Assembly: GCA_044892525.1 (NCBI GenBank)
Contig: CM097885.1
Location: 1,552,001 to 1,616,000 of the forward strand
Length of the DNA stretch: 64,000 nucleotides
Direction of reading: 5' to 3'
DNA from: Schmidtea polychroa
Lineage: Eukaryota
The notes under the pieces are model-generated. The model was not told where the DNA came from. It made no database searches and saw only the letters and a list, made by a program, of their open reading frames with translations. Both the position numbers and the translations under genes were made by a program. How positions within the stretch are numbered: the stretch's first letter is position 1; each line of letters opens with the position of its first letter. This document shows, one piece after another, positions 1 to 64,000 of this stretch.

Positions 1-1690
1 TATATCTGCATTTTATCAGCATTATATCGGCATTATAACAGTATTATATCGGCATTATGTCAGCATTACGACTGCATCATATCTGCATTATATCAGCATT
101 ATATCGGCATTATATCGGCATTATATCAGCATTATATCTGCATTATATCAGCATTATGTCAGCATTATATCTGCATTTTATCAGCATTATATCGGCATTG
201 TATCAGCATTATATCTGCATTATGTCAGCATTATATCTGCATTTTATCAGCATTATATCGGCATTATAACAGTATTATATCGGCATTATGTCAGCATTAC
301 GACTGCATCATATCTGCATTATATCAGCATTATATCGGCATTATATCTGCATTATATCGGCATTATATATGTATTATATCTACGCTATTTCAGCATTATA
401 TCTGCTTTATATCTGCATTATATCAGCATTATATCGGCATTATATATGTATTATATCTACGCTATATCAGCATTATATCTGCATTATGTCAGCATTACAT
501 CTGCATCATATCTGCATTATGTCAGCATTATATCTGCATTATGTCAGCATTACCACTGCATCATATCTGCATTATATCAGCATTATATCGGCATTATATC
601 TGCATTATATCGGCATTATATCAGCATTATATATGTATTATATCTACACTATATCAGCATTATATCTGCATTGTATCAGCATTATATCGGCATTATAACA
701 GTATTATATCGGCATTATGTCAGCATTACATCTGCATCATATCTCCATTATGTCAGCATTACATCTGAATTATATCGGCATTATATCAGCATTATATCTG
801 CATTGTATCAGCATTATATCGGCATTGTATCAGCATTATATCTGCATTATGTCAGCATTATATCGGCATTATATCTGCATTATGTCAGCATTACATCTGC
901 ATCATATATGCATTATGTCAGCATTACATCAGCATTATATCTGCATCATATATGCATTATATCTGCATTATGTCAGCATTACATCTGCATCATATCTGCA
1001 TTATGTCAGCATTACATCTGCATCATATATGCAATATGTCAGCATTACATCAGCATTATATCTGCATCATATATGCATTATATCAGCATTATATCTGCAT
1101 TATGTCAGCATTACATCTGCATCATATCTGCATTATGTCAGCATTATATCTGCATTTTATCAGCTTTATATCGGCATTGTATCAGCATTATATCTGCATT
1201 ATATCGTCATTATATATTATTATATCTACACTATATCAGCATTATATCGGCATTATATTTGCATTATGTCAGCATTATATCTGCATTATATCAGCATTAT
1301 ATCGGCATTGTGTCAGCATTATATCTGCATTATATCTGCTTTATGTCAGCATTACATCTGCATCATATCTGTATTATATCAGCATTATATATGCATTATA
1401 TCCGCATTGTATCAGCATTATATCGGCATTATGTGGGCATTGTATCAGCATTATATCGACATTATATATGTATTATATCTACACTATATCAGCATTATAT
1501 CTGCAATATATTAGCATTACATCAGCATTATATCTGCTTTATGTCAGCATTATACCTGCATTATGTCAGCATTACATCAGCATTATATCTGCATTATGTC
1601 AGCATTACATCAGCATTATATCTGCTTTATGTCAGCATTACATCTGCATTATGTCAGCATTACATCAGCATTATATCAGCATTATAAAAG
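1..1690. repeat. 11-bp minisatellite (TATATC[T/A/G]GCAT and variants), in the intron upstream of the helicase exon
   Basis: Continuous degenerate 11-mers tatatctgcat/tatatcagcat/tatatcggcat/tatgtcagcat; they produce the spurious 'ISALY/HYICI' ORFs. Confidence 0.95.
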
Positions 1691-1718
1691 CATTATATAT
1701 TTCCCCTTTATTTATTAG

Positions 1719-2332
1719 GATACCGGGATAATGAACGAGATCAAAAAGCATAAATTTGTGTCTGTCGAACCCAAGAGCTCCGTTGAAATGGAAAATTGTA
1801 TGGCTCAGTTTTATAAAAAGATCAAAACTGGAGCTCTGTTATTTGCTGTTTATCGAGGGAAGGCCAGTGAAGGTATCGATTTTGCAGATGATGCAGCGCG
1901 CCTGGTGATCACAGTCGGTATTCCATACCCGTCAATCGCAGATCCGAAAGTGTGGTATTCACAGATGGAATCGATAATATATTTCTATCATATTAGATTG
2001 TACTCAAAAGGTCCTACAATGATAAGAAAAATCAGGAACGCAGAGGGGAACAAGAACAGAATTTGTCGGGTCATCAATGGTATAACGTGCAAGCATTCAG
2101 GGCTCTCAATCAGGCGATTGGACGTTGCATCCGGCACCGTTGCGACTGGGGTGCCATGCTAATGGTGGATTCTAGATTCGATGGATGTAATCCCTCCTAT
2201 GGTGATGGGCTTTGCAAGTGGATGAAGCGGCGCAAAGCTCACTACGATATATGGAATGAATTTATCTGGGATTTGGTTAAATTTGTGGAGAGATTGTCAC
2301 CAGTCGAGAAAGAAGGCGGGATCTTAGGTTAA
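1719..2332 (+). CDS. BRIP1: FANCJ/BRIP1-like DEAH Fe-S helicase, last two exons (1719-1949, 1997-2332); 5' part lies outside the window
   Basis: Acceptor AG at 1717-18; 47-bp GT-AG intron 1950-1996 joins the frames. Motifs FAVYRGKASEGIDFADDAARLVITVGIPYP and QWYNVQAFRALNQAIGRCIRHRCDWGAMLMVDSRF are XPD-family helicase C-terminal motifs, closest to the FANCJ pattern (RTEL1 not formally excluded). Confidence 0.85.
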
Positions 2333-2336
2333 TAAA

Positions 2337-2680
2337 TTTGATTGGTTTTTGATACTGTTCTTATTTGATTGGTTTTTGATACTGTTCTTATTTGATTGGC
2401 TTATGATAATGTTATTTGATTGGCTTATGATAATGTTATTTGATTGGCTTATGATACTGTTCTTATTTGATTGGTTTTTGATACTGTTCTTATTTGATTG
2501 GCTTATGATACTGTTCTTATTTGATTGGCTTATGCAACTGTTCTTATTTGATTGGCTTATGATACTGTTCTTGTTTGATTGGCTTATGATACTGTTCTTA
2601 TTTGATTGGCTTATGCAACTGTTCTTATTTGATTGGCTTATGATAATGTTATTTGATTGGCTTATGATACTGTTCTTGTG
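2337..2680. repeat. 27/24-bp tandem repeat (TTTGATTGGCTTATGATACTGTTCTTA)
   Basis: About 13 visible units; source of the 'SQSNKNSII' and 'LFDWLMILF' ORFs. Confidence 0.9.
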
Positions 2681-2699
2681 TAGGTTATTGTGGATCATC

Positions 2700-3900
2700 A
2701 TCTAGAGGTTCTACTAGATATTGTACTCCTTCTAATCTTGGTAGAGATAACTGAGTAAATTTGTAGATGGTGAGGTTCTTACATTAGGAAGTTGAAAATA
2801 CTGGACAACGTTTTAATCTGGGTGATATTATCCCGCACTTTATTTCTGAACCATCGTATTCTGACACTTGACTTCTATCAAATATTTATTTTGAGACTTC
2901 GTAAGGTGGTTGGTAATCTTTAATTGGAGCTCTATTTCGCTGAGAATTCCGTTTTTTTTGTTATTGGTTCTTTTAAGTTCTCTACTTTGTCTACTTGATC
3001 CATTATTTGAACCCCCATTACCTCCTCCCTTTGAATTGTTACCGTCCTGATAACTCGGATTATCCTCCATTTCCATTCTCACAACTTCATGTTTGATTAG
3101 ACCTTTATGCTTAATCTGCTTTATCTCTCCTCTATGGTGCTTGAAAGCTATAAATTCTGCACGCATAGGACACAATCCTAGTAATGGCCCCCACATCCTA
3201 AAGTGGACCCCCAGGCCAGGCCAAACTATATACCGCTTGATGCTCTACAGGAATTAGGATAAAATAGGGTGGACTAAATGATGGCAAGAATGTAACATTA
3301 GGAATTTATTAAAAATGAACTACAGTTTTTAGCTTTACATTTACACATCTCATCACAGGTGTAACTCCTGCCCAAATTGATGGTTTCGTCCAAGTAGATT
3401 TTAGACCGAATGCCCTTTCCGCAATCAATGATAATTGATACGAAAACTTACCGACGTGCTCATTCACATTTTGATTTCGATTATAAAACTGTTGTCTGAA
3501 TAATTTACCTGCATCTCCAAGTAATATTCTAGCTGTGATGGATTCTCTCCATTCTGCTCAATTCTTTGGTGCTGTTGCTGCTGCCATAATATCATTATAT
3601 TTTCTCTTGCTAACCCTTTGAGGTAAATAGGTAATCGCTGCATCATTATATTATCGGGATATACGGATATGCTTTACACGCTTGATAATACTCTGACATG
3701 AACTCTGGAAACTCTCCAGGATCACTGCTAAATGTCTTATCATGCAAATTCACATTTTCCTCGACCATTTGTTGATCTAGTGAGATTTTGTCGGGCTCAC
3801 TAAAATATTAGGTTCTGATCTGGTGGATAGAATCTTCCTAACACAGACTTATATACCTGACTCCAAAGATATATAAATATATGTGCGTGTAAATATATAA
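2700..3900 (-). mobile_element. Degenerate LTR-retrotransposon gag, PBS remnant and U5 end; relative of the element at 59684
   Basis: Minus-strand peptides KTFSSDPGEFPEFMSEYYQ, MQRLPIYLKGLARE and RILLGDAGKLFRQQFYNRNQNVNEHVGKFSYQLSLIAERAFG align with Gag at 61000-61340 (KPFSGNPGEFPEFMSEYFQ, ILRLPLYLKGMARE, RILPGDATRVLRQQFYNRRQNSGEHVGEFSYQIMMLAERAFG). PBS remnant tagtgagcccgac near 3790-3802. Frameshifts are present. Confidence 0.85.
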
Positions 3901-4232
3901 TTAAATAGATATGAATTAACCAAGACTTTTATGTTTTTAAAGATGGACAAAAAATTTTAATGGACAAAATATACAAATTGATAATTTTGTGTTCCAAAAA
4001 ATGCCGCTAAATACTAAAGTAAATAAATCGGTTATTCGAACCATCCTCAGAATAAGGACAAACGCTGGAACTAATGCCTCTCAGCATTATATAAAATAAT
4101 AGATCAAGATGGAGGGTGTTTCCTGCAATTTGCGTGTTAGTTTAGATCAAGAGTGATCTAACGTTTCTAATACTGTCCCCTCTCAAGGTTTAATCCCAAC
4201 GAGAAAGGCAGACAGAAATGATGCTTCTCGTG

Positions 4233-4239
<7 letters not shown>

Positions 4240-4303
<64 letters not shown>
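4240..4303. repeat. (TA)n microsatellite
   Basis: Directly visible. Confidence 0.95.
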
Positions 4304-4311
<8 letters not shown>

Positions 4312-4406
4312 GTATCTTTTATTTATAATAACTATTTTTACTAATTATGGTAATTATTTCTTATCTTAACTTATAGTAATTATTAATTATTTATACCTAT
4401 TATTAT

Positions 4407-5637
4407 TGTTGGGTTATTGGGTTGGTGACAATGTTTATGAATTCAAATTTATACTCTGACTTCAAAGCATGTTTATTAATTCACAAATTAACACTCTTGA
4501 ACACGATAAGCTTTATTAATATTCACAATAAATCGCACAAATTCTAATTACAATCAATTAATCACACAGAGCTTATTGCGACACTACGTGAAGAATAGCC
4601 CTTTCTGTAACCACAATAATCACTAGCTGTCAACCACTCAATTACAAGGTATGTTGATCGATTGTTCTCTTTGCTTTAACCAAAATTTATTTACTCCACT
4701 TCTACTTTATATTCAAATTTACAAAAGATTCTCGTCACTTCTTGTTTCACTCTGTTTAATTCTCTCCTTTAAATTCTAAGTTTAAAATTAAGTTCCTTTG
4801 ATTCTCCTTTTTACTCATTAAATTTAATTCTCCTTTAAACTCTCGTTTTCTTCTCTCGCTATCTCGGTTTTTGTTTCTAATTTTTGTCTGGTTTCTCGGC
4901 CAACAGTTAATCTTTATATAGCCCGTTTCATTTGTGGCACTAGAAACAAATTTTGTTTTTCAATTTCCTCTATATTTCCCGCTATGTCATCCTTATCTCT
5001 GACATATGTCGAGATATGCCCTGTTTTCCCTTTCCATGTTGAGCCGACTTTTCCTGCCATTTCGCTATCTTAAACAGATTGTCAAAATACGGCTTTCCCC
5101 TTATTTGTCTTTCTCTGCAATCTGAAATTCCTCCTTTGTTTGTACTTTTTAATTAAAAATGACCTTTGTTTTAATTTTTTGTTTATTTTCTTTTCTTTGA
5201 TTTATCTCTCTCAGCTTTCTTTTCTGAGTTCTCATAGATCGTCCCGTTTGTCATGAAGATTCTTCCCCCAGGTAATTTACTTATTTATTATGTCATTTAT
5301 CATTTAGGTATTCTCAACATTATTACAATTATGACCCTTGTAACTATATGGCTGTCAAAATTGCTCCCTGAGCGAGCCCCTCCAATCAGTCTATTTTCTC
5401 TCGCAGAAGCCGGTTTTCCTCTGCCTGCTTCTTGTTGACTGCGATTTTATCAGCGTAAAAATAACATGGCTTTATCGGGGTAGTCACGAGGCTAATTGAT
5501 AATCAAATGAAGGTAAAAATGGCTTAAGACAAATGAGGCTCAGATTTCCATCTCAATAACATCAAAAGTAAAAAGAAAACAATGTGGGAAATAGGTGGTT
5601 ATTTTGTGGGGAAAATCCTGGCTCCTGCCGGTCAATA
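4407..5637 (-). mobile_element. Putative solo LTR (~1.23 kb)
   Basis: Termini TGTTG...CAATA (TG...CA with one change), flanked on both sides by TTAT (4403-06, 5638-41). Minus strand has TATA-like CTATATAAAG near 4915 and AATAAA near 4515. Confidence 0.55.
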
Positions 5638-5823
5638 TTATGATTAACCAAAATTATTGTTATTGTTATTAACAAAATTTGTTACTATTATTAATACTAC
5701 AATTATCACTATTAATCTCCCCAAGTCGTTATTGAAAATTGAAATTGAAAAGGATTATCTTGTAGTCGAAAATTTTCCTTTATATTAAATATATTATTCA
5801 CAGCAAAAGACTTAAATTATCTT

Positions 5824-5859
<36 letters not shown>

Positions 5860-5862
<3 letters not shown>

Positions 5863-7060
5863 CAATAAAATGATAATTTAAGCCTTTTGCTGCAAATAAT
5901 GTATTTAATGCAAAGATTTTTGACTATAAGATAGTCCTTGTCAATCTCCTGGAATTTAGCAATCTTCTTCCCGAACATACATTTCCATCTTTCTTTTATT
6001 TCCTTTTTCTTCTCATTGGTTATAAATATAATATAATATAATGATATACTTTCTTTTTCTGAATTTTTAAAAATTTTATTTAAAATTCAAAAAAACAACT
6101 AAAATTTTTAAATTTCTAAAGCTTCTATAATTAGCAGTTAGAAGCCTAACAAAATATTTTAAAACATTTTTAAATCCTATCTTTTGAAAGTATATTTCCT
6201 AAAAGTTTCCATATTATTTTAATTATTGCTTTTCTTAATTTATTATATTTTTTATATATTATCAGATATTCTCAAGGTAAATGACAACAGATCAAATTGA
6301 TAATTTCATTGATTTCTTCTTTAGTGTTGATTTCTGGCCGTCTGTTTATGGTGAGAATTGCTTCTTTGAATCTGATATTTTCTTTCTGGATGTTACCATT
6401 ATCTATGATTTCGATTGAAATACTTTTTCTTTCGTTTGGTGGTTGACATTGTTGGAGATGTCTGTTTATCGAGGATTTTCCACCAGGATCCAGATGTTCT
6501 TTAACTCTTTGGTACAAAGTCCTGAGTGTACTTCCAATGTATTTTTCCTTGCAAAAGACAATGTGTTTTCTAAAGCACATATCTTTCGGTGTTTGGCAGT
6601 TTTTTATTGTGCAATTGTTTTCTCTATTTGTGTTTTTTGCCAGAGCTTTTCTCAATGTCCAAGATTTATGTTCTATCCGAATTGGAAGACCGGTGCGTTC
6701 AAGTTCTTTCTGGATCTTGAAGTTGAGTATGTCACTGATAAATGAGATATTAAGATAGAAATATTTCTTCTTCTTTTGTGTTAATTCCCTAGATCTTATT
6801 GAGATAGAATTCAATCTTTCAATGTCCTCATCTTGGTATCCGTTTCTCTGTAAGATTCTATTGAAATTTGATTGCTGTTTGAAGTTCTCTTTTTCTTCAG
6901 TACATCGATTGGCTATTCTTTTGTTTCGCGTTTTTTTATGACATATACTTTCTGTAATTATGGAAGCGCTGATCTTTGATGCATAAATATTTCTTTGCGA
7001 GCTGGTTTTCTGTATGTTGGAGTATTTGCTTTTATTTTAATTCTTAAATCCAATAAATCC
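5860..7060 (-). mobile_element. Penelope-like retroelement, 5'-truncated: RT C-terminus, GIY-YIG endonuclease and 3' pLTR
   Basis: LLDLRIK...YRKPARKEIFMHQRSALP (RT thumb region), then C-x4-C-x6-C linker and KYIGSTLRTLYQRVKEH...IRFKEAILTINRRPEIN (ORF 6272-6814), a GIY-YIG domain of PLE type; disrupted by stops. Confidence 0.9.
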
Positions 7061-50342: not shown

Positions 50343-51483
50343 TAAATGATTAAATAATAATAATATTGAGATTTGTGAGTACGTTTGGGTTGCAACCAGA
50401 AAGGATGAATCCGATAATTAAGTTGGCTCTAAGAAGAGTGGAGAAATCCGTAGATATTTGTATGGAAGATAGGCCGCCCATGAAGCGTTGCAAAAGATCG
50501 CCATGTGTGAAATTGCAATTATCGTCGAACTGACGAGGCGAGCGAGCACCTTATCAGATCAAAAGGTCGTTTTGAAAAAACTTCCGCCCCTACTAAAGAA
50601 TCAATTTCTCAATATCCCTTCTTCTTACATGACTACTTCCGTTACTCGACACTAAATTAGATGAAATAAACAATAAAAGAGATTTTGAATCAGAGTCGTC
50701 TTTGAGATCTGCAATTTATTGAGGGAACGAACGGGAGAGCTCAGCATAACTGGGTGATGCTGGCTACTGCTGACATTGGGGATGTAAGACACAGCACTTA
50801 ACTTACTATGAAACAGCCTTTGAGACTTTCATTAGAACTGCAGCTTCAATCGCTACTGCTTTTATGCAGACACAATGGATGAGGCAGCGCGGGCCGGACT
50901 GAGGGCTCGGTTAATTGTTTCTTTGATTATTTAATTCATGTTCTCAAGTCAGCAATTATGTGTTTTGCATTTCCCTAATGAATGAAACTCGTGGTCATCG
51001 CCGCTGATAGAAATTTCCATCGCAGATTCTCTATGGCATTTATCACAGAGATGAGGATGTTCGTTTGTGGACATGCCTCGGTGCTACGGACAATGAGTCT
51101 CGTGTATCAGATGTATCAGAATTCTCTAACCCCTCCTGGCCGTCCATGACCATCTCGGCAAGAAACTTCTGTCCATTATTTCCCAACAAAGAAATCAATC
51201 TTGTGTCCCTAGCAAATGTAACAACCTGCTCAATGCCTATTATTAAGGGAAAAAGAATTTTTTTTCATGTAACAAAATCGAGATTCCCTTATTATAGAAT
51301 TGAGCTTCTTGGTTGAATTTGCATGGGAGAGATATTGCACAAAGGGTAGCGTTATTTCGATATTATTAACAATTATATTTTATATTTTATTATTTATAGG
51401 ACCTATATCTACCAGTGGATGCCAATAAGTGATTTTAATTTAATTAATTAATTATATTAATATATAATGATGACTATTATTAT

Positions 51484-52020
<537 letters not shown>

Positions 52021-59683: not shown

Positions 59684-59685
<2 letters not shown>

Positions 59686-60760
59686 TTAGGGATAGGCCTT
59701 GGGGCCTGGAGTGTAAAATAAATAAAGAATTACTATATTTAGAAACAGTATAAATAAAAATTACTGAAAATAGAAGATAGGTTTTACTAATTACTATTAA
59801 TAGATTTAGGTAATATATAGGAATATTTGATAATACTATTACTATATATAGTAATTATAAAATTACTATTAATAAAATAAATAATTAAAATGTGATATAA
59901 ATACTGGTTCAAAACAAGAACCAGGGACGATAAAAACATAGACAATAAAATTGACGATAATTTGCGGACGGGAAAACTGACAAGAAAGTTCGAAAAGGAA
60001 TTGAAACAATAATTTAGAAAATTATTATCATTTTGAAAACGAAAACGTGATTAAAGAATCACTGTGTCAATTATTAAGTTTAGAAGTTCAACATTTGTCT
60101 ACAACAATAAAACGTGATTAAAGAATCACGGTGTTCATCAATCAACCAGACGATAACTCAACTCAAATTTCAGATCGTTTTACAAATTAGAAAGTGACTA
60201 TAAATTGTCAAACGGAACAAACTAGAATCAGAGAGAATAATTTTGGAGAGAAAATTGGAACAGATTCGTGAAACAATAGAAAGGAGCTATTAATCTAGAA
60301 GGTAAAAGAAGTTCTGTACTTGAGTTGTGTAAGGATAAATTATTATCCTTGTGAAGTGAGATAATTAAAATAAAGCGAACACAAAGCACAGACAGCGGCT
60401 TTCGTGTTACCTGGTAGCCCCAAAATCAGCCCTCTTACTTTACCGTCATCTTTTCAATTTATTTAGCGATCGTTGTGCTACACAGGAGCCATCGATTTCT
60501 TGCAGGCTGTGGTAAACAGTAAGGATTAATAAATCCGTTTTCTTGTATTCTTTGCACATATATTATAAATATCTGTTGTAAATTATTAAATACATTTTTA
60601 TAAAAGAGAAAGGCGTTTGTTGTTAATTCAGTGATTTAAAAACTCATATACGCAACCACATTAAATAACTTATTTATATTTATTTTTATTTATTTATCTT
60701 AATTAAGTTATTGGAGTCATTTGTGTTAAGATCTGTAGTCCCCGTTTTTCGATCTTAACA
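59684..60760 (+). mobile_element. 5' LTR (1077 bp) of an LTR retrotransposon (Ty3/gypsy-like by Gag), inserted in (AAT)n
   Basis: Starts TGTTA at the end of an (AAT)n run and ends TAACA; followed after 3 nt by a PBS and then a gag ORF. Confidence 0.88.
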
Positions 60761-60898: not shown

Positions 60899-63800
60899 AT
60901 GGCAGAGATAAATAATTTACAAAATCTAAATGAGAATAATTTACAAAATAATAATGTGCCAGTAGCTCAACCACCAGCGGTAGATTTTATGAGATACCCA
61001 ACAATTCCGATTAAACCATTTAGTGGAAACCCAGGGGAGTTTCCAGAATTTATGTCCGAATATTTTCAGTTAGCCAGAGCATTAGGATTCCCGGAACCGG
61101 TAATGATTTTGAGATTACCTTTATATTTAAAAGGGATGGCACGGGAAATATATAACGATGTTATAATAGCCGAGCATCCAGTTGAATGGAATGTATTACG
61201 ATTAGCATTACAAAATAGAATATTACCGGGGGATGCAACTAGAGTGCTAAGACAACAGTTTTATAACAGGCGACAAAATTCGGGTGAGCATGTTGGGGAA
61301 TTTTCATATCAAATAATGATGTTGGCAGAGAGAGCATTTGGTAATAGGGCAGCCTGGAATGATGCAACTAGAGCATTAGTAAAAGATCAGTTTTGGTCTG
61401 GGTTATCGTCAGCAATGAGAAATGCACTCAGTTTACACATAGGAGATAATTTAGAGGAATTAACTCGTAAAGCGTGTTTAATTGAGAGTAGCATTGAGAA
61501 GTCAAACAATTTTGCAATTAGTAGCAACAAGTCAGACATTGAGTGTTTTAATTGTCATAAAAAGGGACATATGTCAAAAGATTGTAAAAGTAGGAATAAT
61601 TCTCCAGGGGACAAATTGTGTACCAAGTGTGGGAGAAATAATCATGTGGCATCAAACTGTAGAATTTCGGACCTAAATTGTGAGAAATGCAAGCGCAAGG
61701 GACATGTAGCGTCAGTTTGTAAAGCTAGTTTTGGGGGAAATAATTCAAATAATAATAATAATAGAAATAGAAGCCCCGATAGGAATTTTCGTGGTAATAA
61801 TAATACTAATAATAACTTTCAGAGTAGAAATAATAATTTTAATAATAATATTAAAAGGGATGAAGTAAATTCGGGGGGTAAAATTAAATGTCATAAGTGT
61901 GGGAAATTTGGTCATATTATGCGTTCATGTCCACAAAATCAGTTATCTAATAACAATGGTAGTGGCAACAATGGTAATAATCGATCAAAACAGACAACGT
62001 TTGCAGTAAATTCAGACCACAAATTAACGTATTTGCAGCAGCTTGAATTAGAAATTCAAGAAGAAAGAAACAGGTTAGCAAGGCTAACAACAAATGAAAC
62101 TGATGGGTACGATGAAAATGAAGGTGTTTATATGACGTCAGCCAGAAAAAGGCGAAATAAAAATAATTATGTAGAACTTGAAGTGTTGATGCTTCAAGAA
62201 AGTCCACAGGAGGACAACGAGGAAAAGACTGTGGTCATAGAACCAGAGGTCTGTGAGGGTTTACAGGTTTCACCCAGGAAAAATCTAGTGGCTGTGGCCA
62301 TGGAGCCAGAAGCCAACAGAGAAATAGAAGGTTTACCGGTTTCACCAGTTAAAAATCGTAAGGCTTTGGACATGGATCCAGTAGCTAAGGAAATTGTTCC
62401 AACAGGAGTTTTGGAAAAAAAATGGGCTTCGGTCAGTGAACCGGAAGTTCTTATAGCCACATCATCCATGCGAGGTGAGTGTGGTAGTGAACCAATAAAG
62501 GTTCGAGAAACATCGAAAGAGGAAAGAAATCCCATCGATGACTGTAGAAAAATACTATTACGCAAGAGCGTATGGCAAAGAGAAATGAGACAGAAATTGG
62601 AAAATATTCGTTTAAACCCCGTTAATGAGAATGAGGTTGACAAAGTAATAGATATCATATCAGAGTTAGACAGAAATGAGGAATATTATCCAGAACTGAG
62701 AGAAATTCTGAGAAATATTGGCCTAAATTGGAAACAAAGAGAGAATCTGGAGGATTCTACAATTTTTGTATCTTTCCCAAAAGGTTGTTTTCGTAGATAT
62801 ACAATTAAGCCAAGTGAAAAGGTAGAAGCATTGGCAAAGAGAGTTTCTGTGGTAAAACCTCAACAGAGATGCAAACTATATTTACTGGGAGAAAGATTAT
62901 TAGAGGGAGAAACCTTGTTAGATTGTGGTATACTACCAGGGAAAAATATGGTTATAAAAGCAAAGTTTCACAAGGAAACTGTTACAGTAGTGGACTTGGA
63001 TAATGTCCTTACTATAAGCGAGATTGAAATTGATCAATTAAATCAAATATCAGCCGTACCACATAGATTGGGAATTGAACTGATGAAAAACCCAAGAGAT
63101 GGGGAAGCCATTAAGATGATAATGGATTGGATACTGGAGTTGCGAATCCCAGTAGATACTCTTAGAGAGATAATGCCATTGGTGGTGCCTTTAGTAAAAG
63201 AGACATCACAATTCCAGACACAAGCAAAGATGCTGTTGATTAAAAATGGACATGCTATTAGACATTTGGAAGGTAGACAAGGTCCAGTGATGTTAGATAT
63301 CAGGATACCCAGGAGAGGACACCTGATACAACAATTCTCATGTTATCATAGGGTAAAGAAACTGAGAAAAAGGATATCAGAAATATTAAAAGAGTCATTC
63401 CTCATAATGATACATGGTTGTCAGGTGGATGACGACGAATTTCTAGTAGATGTTGGATGTTTTCCCAATGAGGAAACAGTTGTATTAATATTACTGGTAG
63501 AGTTTCCAGAGGATGAATGGGCAACTTTGAGATTGCCAGATAATGCAGAAATGGAGGATGAAACAGTACATCCTGAGCAAAAACAAGTAGACGGGAATAC
63601 TCATCAGGAACCCGTAACCACAGTAGATTTAGATGAAGAGATAGATAAATATCTCAAGGAACTTGATAACACTGAAGACGAGTTGGTCGAAATATTTCCT
63701 ACAGAGGAAGATAATGAAGTACAATTAAATCGAGATGAAACAAACATCGGAGCTAGTACATCGCGACAAGTCGAGCCACCAAGAGAAAGAGTGAGCCCGA

Positions 63801-64000
63801 AATTAGTCGAGAATAAAAAGAAAAGGGAGAGAAGGGGTAGACCGAGGAAAAGTCAAATGAACCCACCTCCAAGAGAACTTCTAAAACCAGTTACAATACA
63901 AAATGTAACTAAGCAGGCTCTAGCAGGGATAGCTAGCCAAATCGATAAAAGCGTTGGAGACGCTAGTGACAAAACGGAAACATGGAAAAGACTGAATCAA
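60899..64000 (+). CDS. gag: Extended Gag(-Pol) ORF, open to the window end (at least 1034 codons): capsid, 4 CCHC knuckles, 2 ubiquitin-like domains, AT-hook
   Basis: Hand translation from ATG 60899 shows no stop before 64000. Capsid motifs PFSGNP..F, LPLYLKGMA, FYNRRQNSGEHVGEF, VKDQFWSGL; knuckles CFNCHKKGHMSKDC, CTKCGRNNHVASNC, CEKCKRKGHVASVC, CHKCGKFGHIMRSC; RRGRPRK at 63830-63850. Confidence 0.92.
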   Translation, partial: MAEINNLQNLNENNLQNNNVPVAQPPAVDFMRYPTIPIKPFSGNPGEFPEFMSEYFQLARALGFPEPVMILRLPLYLKGMAREIYNDVIIAEHPVEWNVLRLALQNRILPGDATRVLRQQFYNRRQNSGEHVGEFSYQIMMLAERAFGNRAAWNDATRALVKDQFWSGLSSAMRNALSLHIGDNLEELTRKACLIESSIEKSNNFAISSNKSDIECFNCHKKGHMSKDCKSRNNSPGDKLCTKCGRNNHVASNCRISDLNCEKCKRKGHVASVCKASFGGNNSNNNNNRNRSPDRNFRGNNNTNNNFQSRNNNFNNNIKRDEVNSGGKIKCHKCGKFGHIMRSCPQNQLSNNNGSGNNGNNRSKQTTFAVNSDHKLTYLQQLELEIQEERNRLARLTTNETDGYDENEGVYMTSARKRRNKNNYVELEVLMLQESPQEDNEEKTVVIEPEVCEGLQVSPRKNLVAVAMEPEANREIEGLPVSPVKNRKALDMDPVAKEIVPTGVLEKKWASVSEPEVLIATSSMRGECGSEPIKVRETSKEERNPIDDCRKILLRKSVWQREMRQKLENIRLNPVNENEVDKVIDIISELDRNEEYYPELREILRNIGLNWKQRENLEDSTIFVSFPKGCFRRYTIKPSEKVEALAKRVSVVKPQQRCKLYLLGERLLEGETLLDCGILPGKNMVIKAKFHKETVTVVDLDNVLTISEIEIDQLNQISAVPHRLGIELMKNPRDGEAIKMIMDWILELRIPVDTLREIMPLVVPLVKETSQFQTQAKMLLIKNGHAIRHLEGRQGPVMLDIRIPRRGHLIQQFSCYHRVKKLRKRISEILKESFLIMIHGCQVDDDEFLVDVGCFPNEETVVLILLVEFPEDEWATLRLPDNAEMEDETVHPEQKQVDGNTHQEPVTTVDLDEEIDKYLKELDNTEDELVEIFPTEEDNEVQLNRDETNIGASTSRQVEPPRERVSPKLVENKKKRERRGRPRKSQMNPPPRELLKPVTIQNVTKQALAGIASQIDKSVGDASDKTETWKRLNQ

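Follow-up and report, generated by a model that had tools for sequence, protein, structure and literature searches.

Why should a retroelement carry ubiquitin-like (Ubl) domains behind its Gag protein, and what might they do there? The question is raised by a stretch of 64,000 nucleotides from Schmidtea polychroa (GenBank assembly GCA_044892525.1, contig CM097885.1, positions 1,552,001 to 1,616,000 of the forward strand). The whole stretch is called the window below, and its first letter is position 1. A retroelement with long terminal repeats (LTRs) begins near the end of the window and runs out of it. An earlier note, made from the letters alone, had proposed that the Gag of this element is fused in frame to two Ubl domains, each belonging to a duplicated unit. 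It is now well supported that the Ubl pair sits in an accessory stretch between the nucleocapsid and the envelope of a single Gag-Env-Pol polyprotein, encoded by a 15.3-kb endogenous retrovirus of the Ty3/Gypsy type. Also well supported, by predicted structures, is that both segments are integral ubiquitin-fold (beta-grasp) domains. Their function can be addressed only tentatively; several readings of it are weighed below.

The Ubl domains and their helical partners

The stretch in question is laid out as follows, with residues numbered along the polyprotein in amino acids (aa):

62531 to 62731, forward strand: helical domain 1, with three helices at aa 545-572, 577-590 and 594-611 (helices H11-38, H43-56 and H60-77 of the AlphaFold2 model)
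62753 to 62977, forward strand: Ubl1, aa 619-693, predicted ubiquitin fold, no C-terminal Gly-Gly
62978 to 63265, forward strand: beta-hairpin extension of Ubl1 followed by helical domain 2, with five helices between aa 711 and 789 (strands E149-164 and E171-176 and helices H177-255 of the model)
63281 to 63508, forward strand: Ubl2, aa 795-870, predicted ubiquitin fold, no Gly-Gly, with the conserved motif G.Q(V/L)DDDE(Y/F)L.D.G

The two peptides quoted in the earlier note were located in the translation of 60899-63997, 62759-62968 being aa 621-690 and 63287-63496 being aa 797-866. Peptides and coordinates were thus correct, and the profile searches and the predicted fold confirm an in-frame fusion of Gag to two Ubl domains. 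Ubl1 taken alone matches the Pfam ubiquitin family PF00240 at E 7e-4 (19.7 bits, under the curated cut-off of 25.4) and Rad60-SLD, PF11976, at E 0.21 (11.9 bits, cut-off 23.8); Ubl2 taken alone has no ubiquitin-family match in Pfam. Against the sequences of the PDB, Ubl1 gives 101 matches at E<=10, the best 60 of which are all of the ubiquitin or NEDD8 type. Mono-ubiquitin chains among them do no better than E 0.06-1; lower values come from multi-ubiquitin chains, in which the repeats are summed.

Profiles built from relatives reach further. A profile of Ubl2 and nine relatives finds 19 PDB matches, all of them Ubl proteins (ISG15 at E 0.009), and one built on 14 Ubl segments, taken from seven loci in this genome, finds 379 PDB sequences at E<=1, including ISG15 at 8e-7 and mono-ubiquitin at 2e-4 to 1e-3. 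One relative, P0019, which carries the Gag knuckles and two modules, exceeds the Pfam cut-offs for both ubiquitin (33.9 vs 25.4 bits) and Rad60-SLD (25.3 vs 23.8 bits). Judged by sequence, the Ubl family is far from ubiquitin, and the link is significant at the profile level.

When aa 371-1170 were searched against 1.84 billion representative proteins, 14 proteins were found at E<=0.001, mostly Gag-linked or fragmentary gene models; a second protein search added four relatives, P0019 among them. Unlike P0019, the relatives P0009, P0015 and P0018 seem to carry a single module. Ubl2 with its preceding helices is the stretch common to most of the 14 and the best conserved among relatives. One of the 14 is a polyubiquitin-like protein, aligned by Ubl1, and among the 1.84 billion representatives no host gene closer than ubiquitin itself was found. 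Homologous proteins of near length were not found either (0 of 2633 candidates at E<=0.001). In a protein atlas, 9 of the 10 best family-bearing matches share a family or clan, mostly of the ubiquitin type, with scores of 0.82-0.86 that lie under the lead level of 0.9.

The fold is read from predicted, not solved, structures. An AlphaFold2 model of aa 535-884, made with an alignment of 15 sequences, has a mean predicted local distance difference test score (pLDDT) of 87 and a predicted template modelling score of 0.65. In it both Ubl segments show the order beta-beta-alpha-beta-beta-(3-10)-beta, with helices before each, so that the beta-grasp fold which the earlier note had proposed to look for in the translation is indeed predicted. 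The top ranks of a Foldseek search are held by linear poly-ubiquitin, ISG15, FAT10 and the tandem Ubl of OASL (E 1e-8 to 1e-5). VIA aligns Ubl1, in a search independent of Foldseek, to ubiquitin and Hub1 (Z 9.2-9.3, root-mean-square deviation 1.7-1.9 A over 72-74 residues) and Ubl2 to SUMO1, ISG15 and ubiquitin, which are tied (Z 11.5-12.3, 1.4-2.2 A over 70-78 residues). The structural alignment of Ubl1 to ubiquitin has 22% identity. A whole-model search of 48,161 chains lists only Ubl folds among its best 50.

In none of the 14 Ubl segments from the seven loci does the fold close with Gly-Gly, and the polyprotein runs on in the same frame, which excludes deubiquitinase cleavage and conjugation. 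The earlier view of the domains as integral and non-conjugatable stands. A linker cleavable by deubiquitinases, of the pestivirus or ribosomal-fusion type, was rejected on the same count.

Each Ubl domain follows a helical one. The block of helical domain 1 has pLDDT 80-91 in the model; that of helical domain 2 has 85-93 in context vs 58.7 when folded alone, a value too low for a structure search. In a module-to-module comparison by hhalign, module 1 aligns to module 2 with a probability of 97.7% and E 1.7e-12 over 117 columns, which cover the Ubl domain and part of the helical domain, helical domain 1 pairing with part of helical domain 2. Direct BLASTP between the two modules sees no similarity (E 48), and the duplication is seen by profiles only. 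An old tandem duplication of a [helical+Ubl] unit, as the earlier note had supposed, is thus well supported by profile comparison. The family profile of helical domain 2 finds only 10 weak, unrelated matches among PDB sequences and no BAG domain. A BAG1-like reading, with a Ubl and a BAG bundle beside a Bcl-2-like domain, was considered and dropped, as neither the PDB profile search nor the whole-model search gave a BAG match. Neither helical domain is assigned to a family, which does not make them new.

The element, its copies and its relatives

The remaining features of the element are these:

59684 to 60760, forward strand: 5' LTR, 1077 bp, TG...CA ends, termini TGTTAG...TAACA
60899 to 64000, forward strand: first 1033 codons of the polyprotein open reading frame (ORF), a single frame of 3495 aa with its stop at window-equivalent position 71386
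60899 to 61528, forward strand: Gag capsid-like region, aa 1-210, sharing 34-57% identity with its counterparts in other fetched loci
61538 to 61936, forward strand: nucleocapsid with four CCHC zinc knuckles, aa 214-346 (Pfam zf-CCHC, E 5.3e-13, four stretches)
63509 to 63814, forward strand: acidic linker, aa 871-972, with VDLD at aa 909-912 (63623-63634)
63833 to 63850, forward strand: AT-hook-like RGRPRK, aa 979-984, a regular-expression match
63896 to 64000, forward strand: start of a Bcl-2-like helical domain, the rest of which lies past the window, up to about aa 1165, with a hydrophobic segment and a glycoprotein after it
73907 to 74983, window-equivalent positions: 3' LTR, 1077 bp, 100% identical to the 5' LTR over 1077 bp

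The element is a Ty3/Gypsy-type LTR retroelement (Metaviridae), with paired TG..CA LTRs, a CCHC Gag and the order protease (PR), reverse transcriptase (RT), RNase H (RH), integrase (IN). It is 15.3 kb long including both LTRs, and it is young. The LTR flanks, read by eye, are compatible with a 4-bp target duplication, ATAA, in a run of (AAT)n; the insertion site is an (AAT)n microsatellite. A tandem-repeat array at 51424-52020 is 78-93% similar to the array adjoining the 3' LTR (window-equivalent 74975-76105).

Along the polyprotein the order is Gag, four CCHC knuckles, two [helical+Ubl] modules, acidic linker, AT-hook, Bcl-2-like domain, hydrophobic segment, fusion glycoprotein and PR-RT-RH-IN. 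Pfam places RVP, RVT_1, RT_RNaseH, Integrase_H2C2 and rve in this sequence, with zf-CCHC upstream. The frame is open from the fourth zinc knuckle (aa 329-346) through the window end. The earlier note was right that no D[S/T]G protease motif follows the fourth knuckle within the window (none between aa 347 and 1033). Its implication that protease and pol are lacking is not borne out: when the sequence is extended past the window, pol is found in the same ORF, with the first such motif, a DSG, at aa 2001, and the 3' LTR follows.

Downstream of Ubl2, a V-D-(L/I/M)-(D/T/S) motif like that of the linker was seen by eye in L041, P0006, P0009, P0015, P0018 and P0020 (a regular expression caught some of these) and is absent, again by eye, in L040 and L042-L047. 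A complex predicted between Ubl2 and aa 893-935, the acidic part that holds VDLD, scored 0.00 in a control-free run that did not draw on the supplied alignment, a score that gives no verdict. RGRPRK, which we liken to the AT-hook consensus and on that ground presume to bind DNA, recurs as RGRPRK, RGRPPD or GRPKK in L041, P0009, P0015, P0018 and P0021 by regular expression. The Bcl-2-like domain proper spans about aa 1040-1165. Pfam Bcl-2 matches aa 967-1170 at E 0.0095, and the family profile gives 114 PDB matches at E<=10, 59 of the best 60 being Bfl-1, Bcl-xL or Bcl-2 at about E 1e-3. W(I/V)..(N/K)GGW, which we take to be the BH2 motif, is present in 5 of the 6 other fetched loci in the alignment of this domain. 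The glycoprotein, at about aa 1170-1815, lies in the same frame between Gag and PR and matches the mononegavirus-type fusion glycoprotein PF24664 (Monjiviricetes) at E 2.1e-82.

After the integrase comes a tail of about 330 aa (aa 3170-3495), in which a hydrophobic segment precedes a domain some 250 aa long and a membrane anchor at the C terminus. Pfam finds no family in this tail, whose identity to that of L041, the nearest locus, is only 30%; it may represent a second membrane protein. A second frame of up to 775 aa (window-equivalent 71332-73656) lies before the 3' LTR and overlaps the end of the first ORF by 55 bases in another frame. An exonuclease had been suspected in it by eye; Pfam finds no family, and the suspicion was dropped.

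At least 49 genome matches to aa 1-1033 were found. The full-length frame is open in 10 of the 49 listed, at 98-100% identity over aa 1-1033. Neither gaps nor stops interrupt Ubl1 in 27, or Ubl2 in 28, of 29 other fetched copies. Both Ubl domains are under purifying selection between copies: the ratio of nonsynonymous to synonymous divergence (dN/dS) is below 1 in 10 of 10 pairs, with values of 0.09-0.55 for Ubl1 and 0.05-0.32 for Ubl2, where the capsid-like region has 0.00-0.13 and the unstructured linker 0.21-0.76. The pairs are non-independent and hold only 1-10 changes of either kind per domain. That the segments stay in frame in other copies, a check called for in the earlier note, supports its reading.

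At 63499-63997 (aa 867-1033), synonymous divergence from copies L014, L017, L018, L020, L032 and L033 is 1.1-1.3 vs 0.1-0.3 elsewhere, with a dN/dS of about 0.1. Because synonymous divergence jumps there, the copies appear to be mosaics, which suggests recombination between diverged lineages in that segment. Two sequencing runs yielded only contigs; one of these, from a run presumed to be of RNA, spans 62720-63511 and has 19 differences, but it shows neither expression nor splicing.

The genome was also searched with two relatives, and eight further loci were fetched, seven of which were scanned with module profiles (L040 and L047, like L042 and L044, are near-duplicates). Two modules lie between nucleocapsid and glycoprotein in 7 of the 7 scanned loci and the whole layout is present in 6 of them. 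The modules stand in frame directly after the nucleocapsid in 8 of 8 loci examined, the window element included. Five long ORFs (L040-L043 and L045) were scanned with Pfam, and each unites Gag, PF24664 and PR-RT-RH-IN in a single frame; L044 and L047 have the glycoprotein, PR, RT, RH and IN by BLAST only, and L046 has only an open frame of 1323 aa, with Gag and modules. Retrotrans_gag is passed by the ORFs of L042, L043, L045 and L046 (31.0-34.0 bits vs a cut-off of 24.1). The RT is 49-51% identical to that of the window element in six loci and 72% in the closer L041. For module 2 the identity is 22-28%, except in L041 (50%); for IN it is 72-87% across loci. With the closer L041 set aside, IN stands at 72-75% and the capsid-like region at 34-35%. 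The modules diverge fast between loci while IN is kept, a pattern to be expected of an accessory part that faces the host. For the glycoprotein family, a first look at the genome gave 2581 candidates.

Two public gene models in which pieces of this element family are fused to host genes are probably annotation chimeras over inserted copies: in P0005 (791 aa) an ion-channel gene is joined to the Bcl-2-like and glycoprotein parts, and in P0013 (437 aa) a Tam41-type gene to the AT-hook region.

The same genome holds what looks like a second, independent ubiquitin-Gag fusion. The multi-copy loci L054 (C1:9662500-9669500, ORF 1047-4508, minus strand, 1153 aa) and L055 (C1:15637500-15645500, ORF 2174-6361, plus strand, 1395 aa) encode near-canonical ubiquitin, as one unit or two, whose LRLCGG or LRLRGG ends are intact (PF00240 at E 8e-23 and 2e-53). 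These units, which are probably cleavable, lie directly upstream of a DUF1759 domain, presumably a BEL/Pao-type Gag. The stop-to-stop frame also holds, still further upstream, pieces similar to EAP30/Vps36, to a proteasome subunit or to a dual-specificity phosphatase.

Possible functions of the modules

The function we infer, though with somewhat less than an even chance of being right, is that the Ubl modules are non-cleavable docking modules of a host-interface cassette and act together with the Bcl-2-like domain. They would be fixed protein-docking parts on the cytosolic face of a membrane-tethered accessory product. With their Bcl-2-like neighbor they would bind host readers of ubiquitin-fold domains, such as proteostasis, E2/E3 or cell-death regulators, and the outcome would be a producing cell that stays alive and permissive. 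The Bcl-2-like domain and the AT-hook look like host-interface functions. The conserved surface of the modules consists of the acidic DDDE(Y/F)L.D.G loop, at about ubiquitin residues 51-60, and a basic helix 1 in Ubl2. As this is not the Ile44 patch, the docking partner is probably not a classical UIM, UBA or UEV reader. If the modules do dock proteostasis, budding or cell-death factors, they would represent a new retroelement route to host manipulation.

Several observations weigh against docking: i) the window's own Ubl domains stay under the Pfam curated cut-offs; ii) only 5 of the 14 single Ubl segments match PF00240 at E<=0.1; and iii) the residues aligned with Leu8, Ile44 and Val70 of ubiquitin vary among loci, which argues against the best-known class of ubiquitin readers, proteasome receptors included.

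In a different reading, the modules would serve the Gag precursor as structural spacers or for self-association and work without the host ubiquitin machinery. The acidic loop would pair with the basic helix of another module, with the basic nucleocapsid or with the AT-hook, and the modules would organise particle assembly or link Gag to the membrane-anchored part of the polyprotein. What is kept in place of the canonical reader patch, the acidic DDDE(Y/F) loop and a basic helix 1 of the KVKKLRK type, is complementary in charge. The confidence of helical domain 2 only in context (85-93 vs 58.7) suggests composite, tightly packed modules, and their position right after the nucleocapsid, in frame in all eight loci, would suit such a role. 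Related Ty3/Gypsy Gag proteins, however, assemble without helical+Ubl modules, and the neighbors, a Bcl-2-like domain and an AT-hook, resemble host-interface functions rather than parts of a lattice. A purely structural role is doubtful on balance.

In a third reading, the Ubl domains would be a built-in budding signal. [quoted passage not shown] A fusion glycoprotein is encoded, which makes enveloped particles plausible, and no conserved P(T/S)AP, PPxY or YPxL was found in the first 1200 aa of nine ORFs; isolated late-domain-like motifs are a YPEL in the window element (aa 597, in a predicted helix) and a YPAL in L041 (aa 13). The residue equivalent to Ile44 is Tyr or Met here and varies among loci, whereas ESCRT ubiquitin readers use the Ile44 patch. 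Moreover, the Ubl domains do not lie at the end of Gag, as about 300 further cytosolic residues follow. On the other side, ubiquitin directly fused to foamy-virus Gag can, according to the part of the report available, promote budding that depends on Tsg101 and ALIX (PMC2958808). A budding signal of this kind is unlikely, and slightly more so in its strict form, in which the modules are a natural, hard-wired substitute for Gag ubiquitination that recruits the ESCRT scission machinery in an invertebrate retrovirus with no peptide late domain. If true, ESCRT-recruiting modules would match in nature what has been found in the laboratory, where Gag-fused ubiquitin drives budding.

Similarly improbable is a SUMO-like system, in which domains of the Rad60 or NIP45 type, with the VDL(D/T/S) motif as a SUMO-interacting motif (SIM) and the AT-hook, would tether an accessory protein or the pre-integration complex to chromatin or SUMO nuclear bodies. 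P0019 passes Rad60-SLD (25.3 vs 23.8 bits), and SUMO1 shares, in a tie, the first rank among structures that match Ubl2 (Z 12.0-12.3). VVDLT and VVDLS (in P0009 and P0018) and TVDLD (in the window element) stand just before the conserved RGRPRK and resemble known SIMs. The profiles, however, rank ubiquitin, ISG15 and NEDD8 first, with no SUMO among the best 60 of the 379 PDB matches. Both motif and AT-hook are missing in L040 and L042-L047, which keep both Ubl modules, and a membrane segment follows, so that nuclear localisation would need proteolytic release. The planarian Burro elements, taken up below, have a motif published under the SUMO-like label, Ubi2/SUMO-like PF11976, in the part of the paper available (PMC6431247).

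The weak similarity to ubiquitin and the sub-cut-off Pfam scores of the window's own domains might still suggest a neutral passenger, the decaying and functionless remnant of a captured host ubiquitin, which is highly improbable given modules in frame in 8 of 8 loci (six with an RT only 49-51% identical to that of the window element), dN/dS below 1 in every pair, domains intact in 27 (Ubl1) and 28 (Ubl2) of 29 copies and a fold predicted with confidence.

Comparison with known systems

Integral UBLs such as those of Rad23, Dsk2/ubiquilin, BAG1 and Ddi1 are beta-grasp and unconjugated, like the domains described here; their proteasome-binding hydrophobic patch, in contrast, is not conserved in these. 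In Ddi1 the UBL stands beside a retropepsin, whereas PR follows here about 1100 residues after Ubl2, past the glycoprotein. A Ddi1-like arrangement is ruled out by this distance and by the lack of a UBA domain in Pfam. The tandem arrangement is shared with ISG15, FAT10 and OASL, of which ISG15 and FAT10 end in Gly-Gly and are conjugated, unlike the domains here. Ubiquitin-fold units also occur in viral genomes or polyproteins, as the ubiquitin insertions of bovine viral diarrhoea virus (BVDV) and the ubiquitins of baculoviruses and giant viruses; viral ubiquitins were the top matches in the viral structure library. These are near-exact host copies, and in BVDV host ubiquitin hydrolases reportedly cut after the Gly-Gly, whereas the domains here are at most 22% identical to ubiquitin and cannot be cut in this way.

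Glycoprotein capture has parallels among other LTR elements. A class III-type viral glycoprotein has been acquired by chuvirus-glycoprotein LTR elements such as Anakin, according to the parts available of two reports (PMC7642597, PMC12440569). A 2026 survey of env-carrying Gypsy elements describes, in the part available, 'errantiviruses' of Nematoda, Bryozoa and Platyhelminthes and a GAG-ENV-POL order in flatworms (PMC13524379). Its elements resemble the present one in being LTR elements with an acquired class III-type glycoprotein, some in the order gag-env-pol; the flatworm env described there is of the herpes simplex virus glycoprotein B type and encoded in separate ORFs, whereas PF24664 is here in frame with gag and pol. 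The word ubiquitin does not occur in the main text of that survey as available.

The closest counterpart, judged by its published description, is Burro/GYPSM1 of planarians. In the part of that description available (Arkhipova and Yushenova 2019; PMC6431247), these are Gypsy-like LTR elements of more than 30 kb, with a 4873-aa ORF1 at whose start Gag and CCHC knuckles are found. An env that matches mononegavirus fusion glycoproteins is placed between gag and pol, in frame with both, and a "Ubi2/SUMO-like (PF11976)" motif stands ahead of a BCL2-like motif. The extra domains were suggested there to meddle with host apoptosis and ubiquitination. The huge ORF headed by Gag and CCHC, the Ubl-like and BCL2-like parts, the in-frame env and the PR-RT-RH-IN order are all found in the present element. 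The earlier note had known of no described family with such an architecture, a claim that has to be given up as the Burro order is partly published (PMC6431247); full-text searches for Ubl domains in the Gag of LTR retroelements found nothing else relevant.

The two differ in several respects. At 15.3 kb and 3495 aa, as against more than 30 kb and 4873 aa, the present element is half the size, and the MATH, BIR, ankyrin and dUTPase motifs of Burro are not found in it by Pfam (E<=0.1 downstream, E<=10 for the window part). Burro, as described in the available part of that paper, has one PF11976 motif; the tandem pair, the helical partner, the fold and conservation in smaller families are unmentioned there (PMC6431247). 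In a search of this genome for a Burro-size copy, BIR led to ORFs of 392 aa and dUTPase to one short frame, and no frame longer than 3361 aa was seen among the 68 scored of the 2581 glycoprotein candidates. The BIR domains (PF00653, about 61-65 bits) lie in very-high-copy ORFs of about 392 aa, e.g. at C1:193600677-193600880. Because all 150 scored matches look alike, another mobile element probably carries this inhibitor-of-apoptosis-type domain.

The element is best rated as a compact new member of the Burro-type kind. With the basic architecture already partly in print, the gain is in detail and not in kind. Very few retroviruses or LTR elements with ubiquitin-fold domains in Gag are known. 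Here the modules are kept in eight of eight loci, several of them deeply diverged, in a clade with thousands of candidate copies, and their neighbors are a viral-type Bcl-2 and a captured RNA-virus glycoprotein. The boundaries at aa 535-884 define an expressible fragment for structure determination and for a partner search. Where the giant Burro elements are hard to study, this 15-kb relative offers the same kind of polyprotein resolved into its domains.

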